From: an uncultured Candidatus Saccharibacteria bacterium
Lineage (GTDB): Bacteria > Patescibacteriota > Minisyncoccia > UBA9983
Length of the DNA: 58,270 bases
Direction: 5' to 3'
NCBI GenBank assembly: GCA_964438405.1
Contig: CAYTKF010000003.1
Span: 1-58,270 of the forward strand
Shown: piece by piece, positions 1 through 58,139 of the stretch
Position numbering within the stretch: the first letter of the stretch is position 1
Layout: every line of letters starts with the position of its first letter
The notes under the pieces: generated by a model
The model's input: only the letters and a program-made list of their open reading frames with translations
Told to the model about the DNA's origin: nothing
Database searches by the model: none
Made by a program: the position numbers and the translations under genes

Positions 1-40
1 GGGAAAATTTTGAGAAATTTTACCTTCATTATCAATCATT

Positions 41-127
41 CGGTGAGGGTGGGATTTGAACCCACGGACCCCTTTCAGGGTCGGCACGTTAGCACCGTGC
101 TGCACTAGACCACTATGCGACCTCACC
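41..127 (-). tRNA. tRNA-Ser(GCT)
   Basis: Reverse complement folds as a cloverleaf: acceptor GGTGAGG/CCTCACC, anticodon stem GCACG/CGTGC with loop GTGCTAA, long variable arm, TTCAAAT T-loop; no encoded CCA. Confidence 0.93.
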
Positions 128-151
128 AATTTTTTTAATATTTTACCACGT

Positions 152-3181: not shown

Positions 3182-4888
3182 ATGCAGTTTTCTGACGTAT
3201 TAATCAAAAAGAAAATTATAGACGCGCGAAAACTCGCGAAACTCACCACGAGGTCAAAGGAGGAAAATTTGTCTCTGGAAAAACTTCTTTTGGATGAAGG
3301 TATTTCAGAAAAAGAAATTTTGGATGCCAAGGGAGAGGCCGGAGAAATTTTAACGCGGACCATTGTTAAAGATCAGATCTCCTTTGAAGTTTTAAAACAA
3401 ATTCCAGAAGAAGCCGCCAGGCATTATAAATTTGTTCCCCTTGAAATTAAAGACGGGGTTTTGGAAGTGGGAATGGTGAATCCAGAAAATGTAGAGGCAA
3501 GAGAGGCTTTACAATTTATTGTCTCAAAATTAAATATTCCATTCAGAATTTATTTGATTACCGATAAAGATTTGGAAATAGTGCTTGACTCTTATAAGGG
3601 CATTCGCGGAGAGGTGGGCAAGGTTTTGAATGAACTGGAATCAGCCCTGGCAGAAACCATACGCGAGGAATCTGTTGAAGATTTTTTAAAAACAGAGATT
3701 AAATTTATAGAAGATGCGCCAATTACCAAAATGGTTGCAGTGATATTAAAACACGCTATATCCGGCAATGCCTCTGATATTCATATCGAACCGACTTCCG
3801 AAAAAACAAAAGTGCGTTTTAGGGTTGATGGTATTTTATATACAAGCATAATGCTTCCTATCAGCGTTCATGATGCCATTGTCTCCAGAATAAAAATTTT
3901 AACCAACCTGAAAATTGATGAAAAACGTAAGCCTCAAGACGGCAGATTCGAAACAAAATTAGAAAATAGAAATATAGATTTTCGCGTTTCCACCTTCCCA
4001 ACTTTTTGGGGAGAAAAGGTTGTCATTCGTATTCTGGATAAAGTAAAAGGGGTTAGGAGTTTAAAAGAAATCGGTTTTTCCGAAGACCAGCTTGTGATTA
4101 CGAAAGAGGCGATAAAAAGACCTTACGGCATGATATTAATTACCGGTCCCACCGGTTCCGGCAAAACCACCACTCTTTATGCTATGCTCCAGGAACTGGA
4201 TAAAGAAAAATATAATGTTGTAAGTTTGGAGGATCCCATTGAATACAATATAGAGGGAGTAAGTCAGTCCCAAGTTCTTCCAGAAATAGGTTATGATTTT
4301 GCAAATGGTCTGCGTTCAATTTTACGTCAGGACCCGGACATGATAATGGTTGGTGAGATTCGCGACAAAGAAACTGCCGCTCTGGCCATACAGGCGGCCT
4401 TAACAGGACATCTTGTTTTTGCAACACTGCACACTAACAATGCTTCTGGCGTAATACCAAGGTTAGTGGATATGGGCGTTGACCCGTTTTTAATTGCCCC
4501 AACCATTCTTTTGGCCATAGGTCAAAGACTTGCCAGGACGCTTTGTCCTGATTCAAAAAAAGAAATACCCTTACTGGGAGCCGCAAGGGAAAAAATTGAA
4601 AAAGAGATAGCTGATATTCCGGAAAACATAAGAAAAAATATTAAAACTCCGGATAGAATATACCAGGGTGTGCCTTCGGCCACATGCCCTAAGGGGGCAA
4701 GGGGAAGAATAGGTATTTTTGAGATTTTGAGGAAATCTCCGGAACTGGAAAATATAATTTTAAATAAACCTATAGATGTCGAGATAATGAAAGAGGCCCG
4801 GCGCCAGGGCATGTATACAATGAGAGAGCAGGGCCTGATGAAATTATTTGAGGGGATAATTAGCTTTGAGGAATTTAATAAGTTATAA
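3182..4888 (+). CDS. pilB: Type IV pilus extension ATPase PilB (GspE/PulE family)
   Basis: ASDIHIEP, PQDGR, Walker A GPTGSGKTTT, EDPIEY, LRQDPD, VGEIRD, ALTGHLV. Confidence 0.96.
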   Translation: MQFSDVLIKKKIIDARKLAKLTTRSKEENLSLEKLLLDEGISEKEILDAKGEAGEILTRTIVKDQISFEVLKQIPEEAARHYKFVPLEIKDGVLEVGMVNPENVEAREALQFIVSKLNIPFRIYLITDKDLEIVLDSYKGIRGEVGKVLNELESALAETIREESVEDFLKTEIKFIEDAPITKMVAVILKHAISGNASDIHIEPTSEKTKVRFRVDGILYTSIMLPISVHDAIVSRIKILTNLKIDEKRKPQDGRFETKLENRNIDFRVSTFPTFWGEKVVIRILDKVKGVRSLKEIGFSEDQLVITKEAIKRPYGMILITGPTGSGKTTTLYAMLQELDKEKYNVVSLEDPIEYNIEGVSQSQVLPEIGYDFANGLRSILRQDPDMIMVGEIRDKETAALAIQAALTGHLVFATLHTNNASGVIPRLVDMGVDPFLIAPTILLAIGQRLARTLCPDSKKEIPLLGAAREKIEKEIADIPENIRKNIKTPDRIYQGVPSATCPKGARGRIGIFEILRKSPELENIILNKPIDVEIMKEARRQGMYTMREQGLMKLFEGIISFEEFNKL

Positions 4889-29196: not shown

Positions 29197-29229
29197 AAAA
29201 CAAAACCGCCGAAGAGGCGGTTTTGTTTT
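29197..29229. terminator. Bidirectional terminator
   Basis: AAAACAAAACCGCC-GAAGA-GGCGGTTTTGTTTT between convergent genes. Confidence 0.85.
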
Positions 29230-38936: not shown

Positions 38937-39869
38937 ATGCCTAGAAATTTTAACCCAGAAAATCTACCATCTCCCGAACTTACTCATGAAGGAATTATGC
39001 TCACCAGCGGCCGTGTCCGCCGAGCTAAAGAGGGCAGAGAACATCGTTGCGAAGACGATATATTAGCTTTTGATTCTGGTGACGTAGTCCAAGCAGTTTA
39101 CGGTGTGTTTGATGGCGTGGGGGGCCACTTTTATGGACAGGAGGCTGCTGAAACCGCAAAAAAGATTTTAAAGTTATATCTTGAACAACATCATCGCGGG
39201 ACTACTAAAAATATCTCCCAAAGGGACCCTAAGAAAATCGGGGCTGATCTTAGAGACTGTTTACTTGAAGCAAATGATAGACTTTTTAGATGGGGCGAAA
39301 AACTCCAAATAGAAAAAGCCGGGCCTAGCACCACTGCTACTGTTTTGATGTTTACCCAAAGTAAGGAAAAGGGATTAGTTGCTGTGATCGCCCATGTTGG
39401 GGATAGCCGGGTTTACCTTTTTCGCGGAGGCAAACTGGAATGTTTAACTCTCGATGATAACCCGCTCATCAAACAAAGTGCTAACCCCAAAGAAACACAG
39501 ATCCAATTAAGCAATACCCACGATCACGCTCTACTATACAGACGAAATGAATTAAGTAAGGCACTTGGATTTGGAAAATATCTTGAACCCCAGATTCTTG
39601 AAACCCTGGCGCAAAAAGGCGATTTATTTCTGATTACTACCGATGGAATTACTGATAATCTAACGGACGAAGAAATCGAGAGGACATTAGAAGAGGCTTT
39701 TGGAACCATGGCCGCCCCCCAAGAAAAAGATTTAGATTTCAAAGACCTTATTAGTAGTAGTGCTAAATTGTTGTATGAGAAGGCTTTGGAAATCAGCCGC
39801 AAAAATCGAGAGGAAGAGGCCCGCGTTCACCCAGACGATATGACTGCGATTATCGTAAAAGTAGAATAA
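38937..39869 (+). CDS. PP2C/PPM-family Ser/Thr phosphatase
   Basis: CEDD, VFDGVGGH, STTAT, HVGDSRVY, TTDGITD, DDMTAI. Confidence 0.9.
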   Translation: MPRNFNPENLPSPELTHEGIMLTSGRVRRAKEGREHRCEDDILAFDSGDVVQAVYGVFDGVGGHFYGQEAAETAKKILKLYLEQHHRGTTKNISQRDPKKIGADLRDCLLEANDRLFRWGEKLQIEKAGPSTTATVLMFTQSKEKGLVAVIAHVGDSRVYLFRGGKLECLTLDDNPLIKQSANPKETQIQLSNTHDHALLYRRNELSKALGFGKYLEPQILETLAQKGDLFLITTDGITDNLTDEEIERTLEEAFGTMAAPQEKDLDFKDLISSSAKLLYEKALEISRKNREEEARVHPDDMTAIIVKVE

Positions 39870-39902: not shown

Positions 39903-40517
39903 ATGACTGCTTTACAAAAAATTAAAAAACTGGAAAAAGAGATTAAAAAACTGCGCGAGCTGGCATATAAAGACGAGCTGACCAAGCTTTACAATAGGCA
40001 TGGCTTTAAAGAAGAGTCAGAAAAGATTATTTCTCAGGTGTCGGCCTTTTTAAAACACGGCGATAAAAGAAAATCTTTGATAATAAAAGATTTTAGTTTG
40101 ATAATTTTTGACATAGACAATTTTAAAAAACTTAACGATACTTACGGCCATCAGGCGGGCGACGAGGCCTTAAAATTTTTTAGCGGATTAATATTGGACC
40201 GTGTAAGAGGCATTGATGCTGTGGCCCGTTGGGGCGGGGAAGAAATTGTAGTGGGTCTGGCCGGAGCCAACGAAGATGACGCATATAAAATCGCCGATGA
40301 TATCCGCGGAAAGCTGGAAAGAAACAGTTTTGTTTATAAAAATAAAAAAATAAATTTTACAGTTAGCGGTGGCGTGACAAGTTTAAATAAGACAAAAGAT
40401 TTTGAGAATATGTTTCGTTGCGCTGACAAAGCCTTGTATAAAGCCAAAAAAACAGGTAAAAATAAGATAGTAAAAGGAAGCGTCGCATTGCGCCTCAACG
40501 GCGCACTTGTGCGGTAA
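39903..40517 (+). CDS. GGDEF diguanylate cyclase
   Basis: DELTKLYNR, FDIDNFKKLNDTYGH, RxxD I-site, RWGGEE, ADKALYKAK. Confidence 0.92.
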   Translation: MTALQKIKKLEKEIKKLRELAYKDELTKLYNRHGFKEESEKIISQVSAFLKHGDKRKSLIIKDFSLIIFDIDNFKKLNDTYGHQAGDEALKFFSGLILDRVRGIDAVARWGGEEIVVGLAGANEDDAYKIADDIRGKLERNSFVYKNKKINFTVSGGVTSLNKTKDFENMFRCADKALYKAKKTGKNKIVKGSVALRLNGALVR

Positions 40518-40818
40518 TGAGGTGCATCCGCCGATGAGGCGGAAGTAATAATATAATTAATGTTTTACTTTTATGTGTTAAAATTTAAAAAGAATGGTAA
40601 ATTATATTATGGTTTTACAAATAATTTGAAACGTAGAATTAGAGACCATAATAGTGGTCAGTCTGATTTTTCTTCAAGAAACGGTAAATTTGATTTGATA
40701 TTTTATGAAGCTTATATCAATAAAAATGATGCAATGGCCGCAGAAAAATATTTTAAAAGTGGACACGGGAGAGAAGTATTAAGAGGAAAATTGAAAAATT
40801 ATTTTGGAAGCGTCGCAT
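40476..40818 (+). mobile_element. GIY-YIG insertion unit that duplicated the 5' end of tRNA-Ser
   Basis: GGAAGCGTCGCAT at 40476-88 and 40806-18 (330 bp apart); REP hairpins at 40489-505 and 40526-44; nuclease gene in between. Confidence 0.75.
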
Positions 40819-40820
40819 AG
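40560..40820 (+). CDS. GIY-YIG nuclease family protein
   Basis: FYFYVL...LYYGFT..LKRRIRDHN...YEAY...AEKYFK; stop codon lies in the tRNA D-arm. Confidence 0.9.
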   Translation: MFYFYVLKFKKNGKLYYGFTNNLKRRIRDHNSGQSDFSSRNGKFDLIFYEAYINKNDAMAAEKYFKSGHGREVLRGKLKNYFGSVA

Positions 40821-40890
40821 TGGCCTAGTGCGCCCGCTTGGAAAGCGGGTATGCCGAAAGGCATCGTGAGTTCGAATCTCACCGCTTCCG
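40806..40890 (+). tRNA. tRNA-Ser(GGA)
   Basis: Acceptor GGAAGCG/CGCTTCC, CCCGC-TTGGAAA-GCGGG, long variable arm, TTCGAAT T-loop. Confidence 0.95.
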
Positions 40891-40894
40891 ATTG

Positions 40895-41488
40895 ATGCAA
40901 TTTCTTGTTAATTTTTTTGTAGGGATTATTGATAAGGTTGGCTATGCCGGCGTTTGTTTTTTAATGGTTCTGGAGAGTATGATTTTTCCTGTACCATCTG
41001 AGGCGGTTATGCCCTTTGCCGGATTTTTGTGGCAGGCCGGACGTTTTTCTTTTTGGCCTGTTTTAATTTGGAGTTTGGTCGGCGCCTTAATTGGTTCCCT
41101 TATTTCTTACTTTGTTGGTTTTTACGGAGGCCGTCCGTTTGTGGCAAGATTCGGCAAGTATTTTCTGCTTAACGAACATCATTTGGAAATGACGGAAAAT
41201 TTTTTCAATAAGCATGGTGAAGTGAGCGTTTTTTTATGTCGTTTGATTCCAGTTGTCAGGCATTTTATTTCTATTCCTGCCGGAGCAGGCAGAATGAAAT
41301 TATGGAAGTTTATTTTTTATACTTTAATTGGCGCGGCATTATGGCACACCATTTTAATTTTTACTGGCTATTATCTTGGCCAGAATTGGGAGTTAATCCA
41401 AAAATATTTTGACATAATAAACATCGCAGTGGTGATTGCAATTGTCTGTGTTATAATATTTTTATATGGCAGAAGAAATAAAGTTTAA
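40895..41488 (+). CDS. DedA family membrane protein
   Basis: LESMIFPVPSE, FFNKHG, CRLIPVVRHFISIPAG. Start reset to MQFL, after the tRNA. Confidence 0.92.
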   Translation: MQFLVNFFVGIIDKVGYAGVCFLMVLESMIFPVPSEAVMPFAGFLWQAGRFSFWPVLIWSLVGALIGSLISYFVGFYGGRPFVARFGKYFLLNEHHLEMTENFFNKHGEVSVFLCRLIPVVRHFISIPAGAGRMKLWKFIFYTLIGAALWHTILIFTGYYLGQNWELIQKYFDIINIAVVIAIVCVIIFLYGRRNKV

Positions 41489-57440: not shown

Positions 57441-57764
57441 TGGAATTACAGTATGAGTAACATTATAAAAACCCAATATTTGAAGCGGAAAATCTAGCTG
57501 TCTTTTTTTGCGATGTGTCAGAATGTCCGCTTCTAAAAGGCGGATTTTTTAATCAGAATGAATAGAACTTTAACAATTTAGCAGGTAAAAAAGTAGAATA
57601 AGTATATAAATTTCCTAATAGGAAATTAAGGGCGTATGGTGGATGCCTAGACATCAAAGGGCGATGAAGGACGTGGCGTGGCTGCGATAATCTTCGGGGA
57701 GCTGCCAAGCGAGCTTTGATCCGGAGGTTTCCGAATGGGGCAACCCATCGTGATTTAATCACGA

Positions 57765-57848
57765 TACGCAGATTTGCGCAGATTTCTACGCAGATTCTCG
57801 CGGATTTTATCCGCGTTTATCCGCGCAGGCATCTGCGTTTATCTGCGA
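57765..57848 (+). repeat. Repeat-built intervening sequence in 23S (helix 10 region)
   Basis: Four CGCRGAT units followed by four inverted ATCYGCG units. Confidence 0.8.
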
Positions 57849-58102: not shown

Positions 58103-58139
58103 TGCGCCTCAACGGCGCATCTGCCGACGAGGCAGAATT
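58103..58139 (+). repeat. REP-derived insertion in 23S rRNA
   Basis: TGCGCCTCAACGGCGCA plus TCTGCCGACGAGGCAGA; matches the element at 40489-40544; flanked by ATT on both sides. Confidence 0.8.

Follow-up and report, generated by a model that had tools for sequence, protein, structure and literature searches.

Organization of the locus

How does a small GIY-YIG nuclease gene come to lie between two copies of the 5′ end of a tRNA gene, with its stop codon inside the tRNA itself? The question is raised by a locus in a 58,270-nucleotide stretch of DNA from an uncultured, ultra-small member of the Patescibacteria (the window, meaning that whole stretch), which contains the following features:

39903-40517, plus strand: GGDEF (diguanylate-cyclase-type) gene, the host gene 5′ of the insertion (ORF list; Pfam PF00990, 1.2e-36)
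40476-40488, plus strand: left direct repeat, which copies nt 1-13 of tRNA-Ser (5′ strand of the acceptor stem, U8, N9 and 5′ strand of the D-stem)
40489-40505, plus strand: hairpin 1, TGCGCC-TCAAC-GGCGCA, the left end of the inserted DNA, abutting tRNA nt 13
40506-40526, plus strand: decayed third hairpin unit, the spacer CTTG followed by TGCGGTAATGAGGTGCA, in which hairpin 1 recurs inverted and in degenerate form
40527-40543, plus strand: hairpin 2, TCCGCC-GATGA-GGCGGA, roughly the reverse complement of hairpin 1
40544-40559, plus strand: A+T-rich spacer from hairpin 2 to the ATG (sequence)
40560-40820, plus strand: 86-aa GIY-YIG nuclease gene, UPF0213/Slx1-like, catalytic domain only (ORF list; Pfam)
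40806-40818, plus strand: right direct repeat, the first 13 nt of the functional tRNA, pairing 7/7 with the 3′ acceptor strand
40806-40890, plus strand: intact tRNA-Ser(GGA), 3′ of the insertion (ARAGORN; Rfam tRNA, 55.8 bits)
58103-58136, plus strand: solo hairpin pair without an ORF, inside domain I of the 23S rRNA gene (hairpin sequence; Rfam LSU alignment)
40-128, minus strand: tRNA-Ser(GCT) without an insertion, with the same GGTCGCAT/AGTGGTCTAGTGC sequence, an unoccupied potential target

The first-pass annotation of this DNA had reported that the first 13 nt of tRNA-Ser occur twice, 330 bp apart, and a sequence search confirmed it: the 13-mer GGAAGCGTCGCAT is found at 40476-40488 and 40806-40818, spaced by 330 nt, with no third match in the window when one mismatch is allowed. 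Chance would supply 0.06 matches, and two or more matches occurred in none of 100 shuffles. The second hairpin and the nuclease gene that follows it were likewise recovered as described (ORF list, Pfam, ARAGORN, Rfam); the gene ends GSVA-TAG inside the intact tRNA, its last four codons and TAG being tRNA nt 1-15 and the TAG alone nt 13-15. The G+C content of the nuclease gene is 25%, against 39% for the window.

On the left, the GGDEF ORF reads ...KGSVA through the tRNA fragment and then acquires nine residues (LRLNGALVR) from the element hairpins before it stops at a TAA (40515-40517), in agreement with the nine-residue prolongation noted earlier. It had also been supposed that this gene formerly ended at the tRNA-embedded TAG, and a relative without the insertion (L168) bears this out: its GGDEF gene ends ...IVKGGFA at a TAG that lies within a complete tRNA-Ser(GGA). 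The window's left repeat and this empty allele have the junction ATAGTAAAA/GGA in common. The left 13-nt copy adjoins the GGDEF gene just as the tRNA does in the empty allele, which identifies it as the resident (recipient) copy.

The sole ORF in the 330-nt insert is the 86-aa GIY-YIG gene, and no tyrosine or serine recombinase was found there (ORF list, Pfam). Rfam returned no meaningful match to a ribozyme or other known RNA family in the leader or insert, beyond the tRNA, at E <= 10. The intact tRNA lies downstream and needs no splicing, which sets the insert apart from group I or II introns and from RNase III-type intervening sequences. Features of IS200/IS605 elements are absent from it as well: there is no HUH TnpA ORF, the hairpins stand at the left end only, and a 13-nt direct repeat is present.

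The nuclease

The 86-aa protein matches Pfam PF01541 (GIY-YIG) over residues 1-70 (7e-17, 61.9 bits, cut-off 22.6). It has no further Pfam match, and neither Pfam nor a structure search revealed a DNA-binding domain. Y3, Y5, Y16, G18, R26 and E62, and also E50, are invariant across 62 homologues, and H30 is at least 90% conserved; by comparison with I-TevI and UvrC, residues Y3/Y5, Y16/G18, R26 and E62 would make up the GIY-YIG catalytic motif. An AlphaFold2 model (pLDDT 90.7) has the alpha/beta GIY-YIG fold, and its top Foldseek matches are UPF0213, then Slx1 (TM 0.65, rmsd 2.2 A), the UvrC N-domain and the I-TevI catalytic domain. Profile matches include BH0048 (1zg2, 4.4e-8) and EF2693 (1ywl, 8.9e-7). 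The protein is nearest to the UPF0213 / YhbQ-Slx1 clade by profile, has a single domain and is shorter than 100 aa, and both the profiles and the model indicate that it is a bare UPF0213/Slx1-like catalytic domain. UPF0213/YhbQ proteins and the Slx1 nuclease domain are thus its best matches in sequence and fold, with the same size and the same catalytic residues. Slx1 requires Slx4 and cuts branched DNA in repair. Bacterial UPF0213 proteins are, to our knowledge, encoded by ordinary single-copy genes of unknown role, and we know of no report that links them to tRNA genes.

Other collections added little to this picture. An NCBIfam search with the nuclease gave nothing above cut-off, a PHROGs search gave generic homing-endonuclease families only (4e-5 or weaker), and the sole sign of a defence system was a weak partial PADLOC match to UzuA (6e-4 over 34 residues).

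The hairpin pair

The two hairpins are approximate reverse complements of each other and together form a quasi-palindrome. The leader is more stable than its shuffles (z = -3.3 as RNA, -4.1 as DNA). Across 34 sequences the hairpins are conserved with compensatory changes: 99.5% of cells are paired and 6 of 12 pairs have changed on both sides, a level of covariation reached by none of 500 shuffles. The changes in the stems are full Watson-Crick compensations only, with no G-U or G-T pairs. The spacer between hairpin 2 and the ATG varies in sequence among relatives and is about 10-25 nt long.

One part of the first-pass annotation does not hold. It had the upstream hairpin replacing the D-loop, with CTTGTGCG as the remnant of a D-arm, and tRNA homology of the left copy stops at nt 13 in all relatives. 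The candidate remnant is actually a decayed third hairpin unit, missing in most relatives, in which hairpins 1 and 2 are directly adjacent without the 40506-40526 segment. Its intact counterpart is found in L031, where CCTG plus TGCGCCGTAGAGGCGCA stands at the equivalent position and repeats that locus's own hairpin 1 exactly, in inverted orientation; in the window, fold prediction pairs the third unit with the 5′ arm of hairpin 1. Kissing of the two loops and base pairing of one hairpin with the other were considered and rejected, since the variable loop bases are not complementary across loci.

Hairpin pairs also occur without an ORF. In the solo pair of the 23S rRNA gene, hairpin 1 is identical to the copy at 40489, and one compensated change, C-G to T-A, separates the two versions of hairpin 2; the Rfam LSU alignment has 61 nt there against 19 in the consensus. 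Others lie upstream in L012 and L025, and arrays are present in L039 and L047. By analogy, the solo 23S pair may be an ORF-less version of the GIY-YIG insertions known from rRNA genes of the CPR. A high-copy REP-like family was rejected, as the window holds only two copies of the pair.

Linkage to tRNA genes across the family

The locus had been interpreted as a minimal integrase-free, tRNA-targeting element. This interpretation was exposed on three points set in advance (the duplication might be an assembly artefact, homologous nucleases might show no association with tRNA genes, and empty-site relatives might not exist), and it is supported on all three. First, an assembly artefact is ruled out: the same gene order was found in three other assemblies, on contigs from other samples (L083-L085), and the architecture recurs in about 30 other genomes. 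Second, the homologous nucleases surveyed are overwhelmingly tRNA-linked. About 120 homologues were found at 64-84% identity, most of them ending G[GSE][VF]A before the stop. Among the 33 closest loci in the GTDB species genomes, 23 have a tRNA-Ser (GGA, TGA or GCT) whose start lies 14 nt upstream of the ORF end. Of 24 close loci, 20 repeat nt 1-13 of their own tRNA exactly on the left, and TGCGCC... always follows; in 20 of 24 the left copy agrees with the right and both agree with the type of the host, including the GGAAGCG type of the window, which is specific to its lineage.

More distant subfamilies show comparable arrangements at other tRNAs. Repeats of 21-22 nt are found at tRNA-Gln and tRNA-Pro, tRNA-Gly loci have repeats and hairpins too, and there are also a 35-nt repeat in the anticodon loop and repeats of the 3′ end. 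In each subfamily the repeat (13, 21-22 or 35 nt) is as long as the stretch that reaches from the tRNA 5′ end up to the insertion point. Insertion takes place where a stem meets a loop or within a loop: at the start or the end of the D-loop, in the anticodon loop and in a 23S hairpin loop. Hairpins remain with the ORF across subfamilies of only 40-55% protein identity. Six loci (L008, L013, L014, L010, L032, L081) have an intact ORF and hairpins without an adjoining tRNA fragment, and in several others that keep an intact ORF the left fragment has decayed.

The genomic surroundings vary. The 33 loci have 17 different upstream contexts, the window's closest nuclease relatives (84%) have different neighbours, and the nuclease tree, with its weak resolution, follows neither context nor anticodon. 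The order GGDEF-element-tRNA-Ser(GGA) is common to seven genomes, so part of the distribution is vertical. No cross-species pair of elements exceeds 85% nucleotide identity, and thus no recent transfer was caught. No relative was present in the viral contigs searched for phage carriage.

Empty sites, decay and nesting

Third, the empty-site relatives were found: the orthologous target is filled in the window and empty in L168 and in L080, where the GGDEF gene is 84% identical, synteny is as in the window and the GGDEF stop abuts the tRNA. The GGDEF orthologues end K[AS]S[DE]L, or else KGGFA or KGSVA inside the tRNA. Decay is also evident, with interrupted nuclease ORFs at five or more loci (L029, L033, L044, L055, L062) and, in L079, a relative of 92% identity, the remnant of a different, decayed GIY gene at the very site that the element occupies in the window. 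These, with the few close loci (about 40 among 185,579 GTDB species genomes), make up a patchy distribution with a cycle of gain, decay and loss. A metagenome scan with a GGDEF alignment used over-general peptide patterns, and 5 of its 80 loci were orthologous; L087 is empty on the 5′ side.

L016 holds a nested copy, and L012, L025 and P0105 have traces of tandem copies; nested and tandem copies suggest that occupied sites are open to renewed invasion. In the occupied allele a complete tRNA gene is re-formed, and the only difference lies upstream of +1. The middle 13-mer of L016 is another natural acceptor type, with native nt 14-35, and the left copy of L001 is also another natural acceptor type; such mosaic repeats suggest recombination between different tRNA-Ser alleles. 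A variable-length target duplication was considered for L012, L017 and L015, where the repeats extend 15, 9 and 5 nt leftward, and rejected: the additional matches either fall on sequence of the ORF tail or come after a solo hairpin, and so look like remnants of tandem copies.

A proposed homing model

Our best reading is that of a minimal integrase-free homing-type element that targets tRNA-gene loops and whose target is regenerated by duplication rather than splicing. Its status as an element is well supported, and a selfish insertion of this design is very probable; spread by repair of a nuclease-triggered break (homing) could go either way. To the statement as a whole, a selfish insertion in tRNA-Ser(GGA) that spreads by homing, we assign a probability of roughly 0.55.

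The insertion comprises the 330 nt at 40489-40818, placed at the D-stem/D-loop boundary (nt 13/14) of tRNA-Ser(GGA). It consists of a G+C-rich hairpin pair that defines the left end, an 82-codon GIY-YIG frame without its own stop, and a second copy of tRNA nt 1-13. This second copy and the resident nt 14-85 together make a complete tRNA, so that the essential gene survives without splicing; the nuclease frame runs through G-S-V-A and stops at tRNA U13-A14-G15; and the displaced resident 13 nt remain on the left, fused to the GGDEF gene that formerly ended at that TAG. We infer that the GIY-YIG nuclease mobilizes the element. It would break naive tRNA-Ser genes at or near the D-loop, the predicted site of cleavage, and the break would be repaired by copying from the occupied allele, with tens of bases of conserved tRNA (nt 14-85) as homology on the right and the 13-mer on the left. 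This would amount to homing of a free-standing endonuclease gene with a target duplication in place of an intron. The hairpins might mark the end of the copied tract, or form a structure recognised by the Slx1-like nuclease. The element is probably transcribed as a tRNA 5′ leader, in which case RNase P processing would remove the stop codon of the message, and nuclease levels should therefore stay low.

Several observations count against homing. The 86-aa protein lacks a DNA-binding domain such as underlies the long recognition sites of known GIY-YIG homing enzymes. There is no obvious self-immunity, since the occupied allele keeps a complete tRNA gene and a target wholly inside the tRNA would survive insertion; the second tRNA-Ser of the window has the same D-arm sequence and is unoccupied. 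The right 13-mer would be expected to come from the donor, yet both copies in the window are of the GGAAGCG type peculiar to its lineage, at every locus the right copy makes 7/7 pairs with the native 3′ strand, and the body of the tRNA agrees with the lineage of the host. Sequences of this kind fit a true duplication of the native target better, unless the donors were conspecific. The ceiling of 85% nucleotide identity across species and the gene order shared by seven genomes also speak against homing.

Alternative explanations

The lineage-matched 13-mers lead to the first alternative, site-specific transposition with a true target-site duplication. Here the nuclease or a host factor would make staggered cuts at about tRNA -1/+1 and 13/14, the hairpin-ORF unit would be ligated in, and fill-in would duplicate the native 13 bp. 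In its favour, 20 of 24 loci (the window's GGAAGCG included) have the same 13-mer on the left as on the right, and it is that of the host itself; the right copy always fits the native 3′ acceptor strand, the tRNA body tracks the host lineage, and the hairpins stand exactly at one end of the element, as in many transposons. We nevertheless consider transposition unlikely. The repeat length varies by subfamily (13, 21-22 or 35 nt), and since in each it corresponds to how far the insertion lies from the tRNA 5′ end, a stagger defined by the enzyme fails as an explanation. The mosaic repeats of L016 and L001 match other natural acceptor types, the right end has no terminal inverted repeat, and GIY-YIG enzymes are hydrolytic nucleases for which we know of no strand-transfer chemistry.

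Insertion always takes place at the 3′ end of the tRNA fragment, whatever the fragment's length, and the fragment always abuts the covarying hairpins. This could mean that targeting is guided or directed by structure: the tRNA 5′ fragment and the hairpin pair, as RNA or as extruded DNA, would program the nuclease to cut where homology to the fragment ends, comparable to the transposon-end guide RNAs of TnpB/IscB or to Slx1 at branch points. A protein without a DNA-binding domain whose nearest characterised fold relative is the structure-specific Slx1, insertion points at stem-loop boundaries or in loops, and stems that vary solely by full Watson-Crick compensation without G-U or G-T pairs would all be in keeping with this. 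One form of the idea, a doubtful and tentative proposal, lets the hairpin pair confer specificity whether or not the retained tRNA fragment takes part: a domain-only Slx1-like nuclease would recognise extruded stem-loops or R-loop branch points in structured-RNA genes (the D-loop and anticodon loop of tRNAs, hairpin loops of rRNA) and cut at stem-loop boundaries. The fully programmed form is improbable. At 86 aa the protein is far below the size of any known guided nuclease, and intact ORFs with hairpins persist both without a neighbouring tRNA fragment (L008, L013, L014, L010, L032, L081) and beside a decayed one.

It is very improbable that the element is not mobile at all. The small GIY-YIG gene would then be a conserved host gene co-transcribed with tRNA-Ser, and the repeats and hairpins an old local duplication, inherited vertically and sometimes lost. 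The shared gene order of seven genomes, a cross-species nucleotide identity of at most 85% and strong purifying selection on the protein would suit such a history. Against it stand the empty sites in close relatives, the 17 upstream contexts and three tRNA-Ser isoacceptors, the matching repeats of sister subfamilies located at other tRNAs, the existence of nested, tandem and decayed copies, the patchy distribution (about 40 close loci in 185,579 species genomes), the different decayed GIY gene at the same site in L079, and a nuclease tree that, as far as its weak resolution goes, is independent of context and anticodon.

The hairpin pair could scarcely be the true mobile unit, a miniature palindromic element moved by another factor with the GIY-YIG gene as a passenger: the ORF-less pairs at 58103-58136 and in L012/L025 and L039/L047 would fit, but the window has only two copies, the hairpins stay with the ORF at 40-55% protein identity, and solo copies are equally explained as ORF-deleted remnants.

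Comparison with known systems

Multi-domain homing enzymes of the SegB class have a separate DNA-binding region. SegB of phage T4 is a free-standing GIY-YIG homing endonuclease whose gene lies in the T4 tRNA gene cluster; it recognises a conserved tRNA motif, and its recognition site is 27 bp (PMC2330249). Like SegB among the free-standing GIY-YIG genes of T-even phages, the nuclease described here is encoded outside any intron, in or near tRNA genes, and would have a conserved tRNA-gene target. SegB spreads with its flanks into genomes that lack it, and we propose that the present element spreads likewise. The two differ in that SegB is multi-domain, phage-borne and located between genes, without a target duplication, whereas the element encodes an 86-aa catalytic domain only, and belongs to Patescibacteria chromosomes, where it sits inside a tRNA gene with a duplicated 5′ segment, has a conserved pair of hairpins and uses the stop codon of the tRNA.

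Tyrosine-integrase islands and prophages also insert within tRNA genes, leave a direct repeat of part of the tRNA and regenerate an intact one. Such tRNA-targeting islands and prophages are kilobases long, encode an integrase and mostly use the 3′ half of the tRNA; the element, in contrast, is 330 bp long, has no integrase and duplicates the 5′ end, with its junction at nt 13/14. Group I introns with a homing endonuclease in bacterial tRNA genes are similar in that a selfish nuclease resides in a tRNA gene whose function is kept. The tRNA is restored by RNA splicing in those introns, whereas here it is restored at the DNA level by the duplicated 5′ segment, with no ribozyme (Rfam). With IS200/IS605 elements and the guide RNAs of TnpB/IscB the element shares end hairpins that abut a specific flank, which could act as a specificity determinant, but it has no HUH transposase, TnpB or IscB, its hairpins are at one end, and there is a target direct repeat.

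In rRNA genes of the CPR, GIY-YIG ORFs have been described in insertions that are neither group I nor group II introns, at the tops or bases of stem-loops (Tsurumaki et al., 2024, PMC11270868); the authors regarded them as sporadic cases that fall ‘outside the context of homing’. These share with the element the host group and a location in structured-RNA genes. The study dealt with rRNA genes only and describes neither tRNA targeting nor target duplication, and its main text uses neither the word ‘hairpin’ nor the term ‘tRNA gene’.

Significance

A full-text literature search, of incomplete coverage, found no published account of tRNA-linked GIY-YIG mini-elements; an earlier description is possible. 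If the reading is right, a selfish nuclease gene in an essential gene would have a third lifestyle besides the self-splicing intron or intein and a place beside the gene, carrying along a duplicate of the gene's 5′ end and rebuilding the gene at the DNA level. The lower size limit of mobile elements that look self-contained would also fall, to about 320 bp; the frame has 82 codons, and its stop is supplied by U13-A14-R15 of the target, which is universally conserved. This raises the question of how a bare 86-aa GIY-YIG domain finds one position in a tRNA gene. Were the structure-guided reading true, it would represent a new kind of structure- or nucleic-acid-guided DNA movement and, at about 320 bp, the smallest autonomous mobile element known in bacteria. 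A compact nuclease specific for tRNA genes could be of interest as a tool.

The element would offer a family-wide explanation for the many small ‘GIY-YIG nuclease family protein’ genes in Patescibacteria, and the same explanation would cover tRNA 5′/3′ fragments and short hairpin insertions at rRNA and tRNA loci of this group. The ORF/tRNA overlap and the pseudo-tRNA fragments also affect gene calling, and ORFs are prolonged through the hairpins into peptides such as RLYGASAEEAEV or EGSHCASSAHPP.

Anatomy of the inserted locus

The element in tRNA-Ser(GGA) and the host gene that it abuts are arranged as follows.

39903-40517: GGDEF gene just upstream, reading K-G-S-V-A over the left 13-mer and a further nine residues within the hairpins
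40476-40488: left 13-mer, GGAAGCGTCGCAT, the first of two copies
40489-40505: hairpin 1, TGCGCC-TCAAC-GGCGCA, between the 13-mer copies
Between hairpins 1 and 2: 21 extra nt, CTTG followed by TGCGGTAATGAGGTGCA
40527-40543: hairpin 2, TCCGCC-GATGA-GGCGGA, between the 13-mer copies
Between hairpin 2 and the ORF: A+T-rich spacer, 16 nt
40560-40820: 86-aa ORF (Pfam GIY-YIG, 7e-17), C-terminus G-S-V-A-TAG
40806-40818: right 13-mer, GGAAGCGTCGCAT, the second copy and the 5′ end of tRNA-Ser(GGA)
40806-40890: tRNA-Ser(GGA) (ARAGORN; Rfam, 55.8 bits)

Given its G-S-V-A-TAG end, the final 15 nt of the ORF are tRNA nt 1-15. With up to one mismatch allowed, GGAAGCGTCGCAT matches only twice in 58 kb (0.06 matches expected by chance). 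G+C content falls from 52% in the leader to 25% in the ORF, against 39% for the whole window. The first-pass annotation had reported this duplication and named an assembly artefact as what would overturn it; contigs of three other samples show the identical arrangement, which rules out an artefact. A PP2C phosphatase gene (38937-39869) and a VTT/DedA-family gene (40898-41488) flank the locus and are missing from the otherwise syntenic L080, a homologous locus from another genome: the neighbourhood carries indels other than the element.

Empty and re-invaded sites

K[AS]S[DE]L* is the usual end of the GGDEF gene among its orthologues; a few end within tRNA-like sequence. An empty allele had been predicted, and homologous locus L168 (GGDEF 68% identical) supplies it: ...AATAGAATAGTAAAA|GGAGGGTTCGCATAG... 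encodes ...IVKGGFA*, its TAG lies within an intact tRNA-Ser(GGA), and neither hairpins nor a nuclease gene are present at the site. Because this junction matches the window's ...GATAGTAAAA|GGAAGCG, the left 13-mer is identified as the resident one. In L080 (GGDEF 84% identical) the GGDEF stop immediately adjoins the tRNA, and the gene order is that of the window (Cpn60-LemA-M48-GGDEF-tRNA-Ser-123aa-ATPase-NrdD). Locus L087 is empty on the 5′ side and has a different GIY-YIG gene 3′ of the tRNA. In L079 (GGDEF 92% identical, ending KGSVA*), 17 nt of tRNA are joined to the last 37 codons of a different GIY-YIG gene, so the same site has been invaded more than once.

The window's tRNA-Ser(GCT) (40-128, minus strand) shares GGTCGCAT|AGTGGTCTAGTGC with the occupied tRNA and has no insertion; D-arm sequence alone is therefore insufficient to explain target choice.

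A family of tRNA-Ser-linked GIY-YIG genes

As a query, the 86-aa protein hit about 120 clusters (64-84% identity); with few exceptions these are about 86 aa long and come from metagenome-assembled genomes of Patescibacteria (Parcubacteria). Loci from species genomes (78 in all) were then scanned for tRNAs. Of the 33 loci that share at least 66% identity, 23 have a same-strand tRNA-Ser (GGA, TGA or GCT) whose start lies exactly 14 nt before the ORF end; the 33 lie in 17 unrelated upstream contexts. Almost all share one layout upstream of the ATG: [own-genome tRNA nt 1-13][TGCGCC TCNNC GGCGCA][TCCGCC GNNGA GGCGGA]. The left 13-mer always ends in ...GCAT with the hairpin next, equals the right 13-mer in 20 of 24 scorable loci, and covaries with the tRNA acceptor stem from genome to genome. 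Most homologues end in G-[GSE]-[VF]-A because the tRNA 5′ end reads so in that frame, with U13-A14-R15 as the stop. Gene-caller starts placed too early yield the N-termini RL[YHN]GASA[DE]EAEV or EGSHCASSAHPP[MLK]RRKW, which are one hairpin pair in two reading frames. The ORF is interrupted in at least five loci.

When 1.8 billion representative proteins were searched by profile, 3 clusters matched at 1e-30 or better, 1,388 at 1e-10 or better and 10,559 at 1e-3 or better. The small GIY-YIG proteins are thus a very large set, in which the tRNA-Ser subfamily forms a small, tight branch. Two loci (L008, L013) hold hairpin-plus-ORF units with no tRNA nearby, a Gly-rich gene on one side and a GGDEF gene on the other; there the first bases of hairpin 1 supply the upstream gene's stop (TGA or TAG), and the nuclease ORF has its own.

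The hairpin pair

Across 34 aligned copies, chosen by a pattern that itself demanded at least 5/6 complementary positions per stem, 99.5% of cells are paired and 6 of 12 pairs changed on both sides (20 cells), a level reached in 0 of 500 shuffles. Stems in these copies change by complete Watson-Crick replacement throughout, G-U and G-T pairs being absent, and hairpin 2, including its loop, nearly matches hairpin 1 read as the reverse complement. RNA structure fits these features no better than a cruciform or palindrome acting as DNA, or a site bound by a protein, would.

The extra 21 nt had been taken to hold a D-arm remnant, CTTGTGCG resembling CTAGTGCG. That reading was dropped: tRNA homology stops at nt 13, and the counterpart in homologous locus L031 (CCTG followed by TGCGCCGTAGAGGCGCA) repeats that locus's own hairpin 1 exactly, in inverted orientation, so the likeness is coincidental.

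Loci L039 and L047 carry tandem arrays of 3-5 same-consensus hairpin units 5′ of the GIY ORF, which suggests local multiplication of the units themselves. At 29205-29221 in the window, ACCGCCGAAGAGGCGGT lies between AAAACAAA and TTTGTTTT; this stem-loop is almost the family's hairpin 2 (CCGCC GAAGA GGCGG), and looks like a bidirectional terminator.

Other tRNA targets and nested insertions

Distant subfamilies (40-59% identity) have the same design at different tRNAs. Repeats in the tRNA-Gln and tRNA-Pro subfamilies are 21-22 nt long and stop at the D-loop's 3′ side, tRNA-Gly loci likewise have direct repeats and hairpins adjoining the tRNA, and some elements sit 3′ of tRNAs with the 3′ ends duplicated. 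In every case the insertion point marks one end of the repeat and, approximately, the tRNA 5′ end the other, with a same-consensus hairpin pair adjoining. Locus L016 holds a nested pair: a second-subfamily element, with a repeat of 35 nt, has entered tRNA-Ser(TGA) at its anticodon loop, and a first-subfamily element lies at nt 13|14 of the 5′ fragment that this insertion left.

L016, 2447-3170: 13-mer, hairpins, subfamily A GIY gene, tRNA nt 1-35, other hairpins, second-subfamily GIY gene, intact tRNA-Ser(TGA)

The middle 13-mer belongs to a natural acceptor type found in neither outer copy.

L081 (~1290-1385), L082 (~4320-4490) and L024 each have a second copy of the tRNA-Ser 3′ end 45-130 nt further downstream, separated from the tRNA by an insert that lacks an ORF; such copies are scars that other insertions left at the 3′ ends of these tRNA genes. 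In L166 (2098-2290) the GGDEF frame continues into nt 1-35 of a tRNA-Ser, a fragment that breaks off in the anticodon loop, and closes with ...FINGEVA*; a tRNA-Ser(GGA) of quite different sequence follows the fragment after about 65 nt. This looks like the remnant of an anticodon-loop insertion.

Nuclease and mode of movement

The AlphaFold2 model of the 86-aa protein is confident (pLDDT 90.7), and Y3, Y5, Y16, G18, R26, E50 and E62 are invariant among homologues. By profile the closest solved proteins are UPF0213 BH0048 and EF2693; by fold they are the same two, then Slx1, the UvrC N-domain and the I-TevI catalytic domain. The protein has no second domain, and the source of specificity is not a classical DNA-binding module.

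That the element is selfish is well supported; how it moves is unproven, with homing favoured. The nuclease would cut uninvaded tRNA-Ser genes close to the D-loop; an occupied allele would then serve as the repair template for the hairpin-ORF-13-mer tract, pairing on either side through tRNA sequence. What splicing does for intron-borne endonuclease genes would here fall to the duplicated 5′ segment. Homing draws support from the occurrence of empty and filled alleles, the conserved target, the decay and turnover of copies, a repeat that always spans tRNA start to insertion point, and the mosaic repeats of L016 and L001, which match other natural acceptor types. The precedent of SegB counts for it as well. 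Against homing stand the bare domain and a self-immunity that is not evident. The window's two 13-mers are also both of the lineage's own type and its tRNA body is host-like, as a true duplication of native sequence would leave them, and transposition with target duplication is therefore kept as the main rival. A structure- or guide-directed variant is a further option.

Since the ORF stop lies beyond the RNase P site, tRNA processing should yield a non-stop ORF message, which, if true, would account for tight self-limitation of the nuclease.

A literature search found SegB and a study of CPR rRNA insertions, and no tRNA-embedded GIY-YIG mini-elements, 5′ duplication of this kind or such hairpins. 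We place the element among free-standing homing endonuclease genes or tRNA-targeting insertion elements.

Insertions in the 23S rRNA gene

GIY-YIG ORFs have been reported from non-intron insertions of CPR rRNA genes (Tsurumaki et al., PMC11270868). The window's 23S rRNA gene, which starts near 57616, has two expansions.

~57775-57841, plus strand: expansion near helix 9, 67 nt against 13 in the consensus
58103-58136, plus strand: solo hairpin pair in domain I, no ORF

In the solo pair, hairpin 1 is identical to that of the element and hairpin 2 differs by one compensated change; the Rfam alignment there has 61 nt against 19 in the bacterial consensus. The pair may derive from this element family, as a remnant that has no ORF or as a miniature version. 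The expansion near helix 9 is built of repeated hairpins of the GCAGATTT and GCGGATTTTATCCGC types, unlike those of the element, and is probably of the intervening-sequence type.
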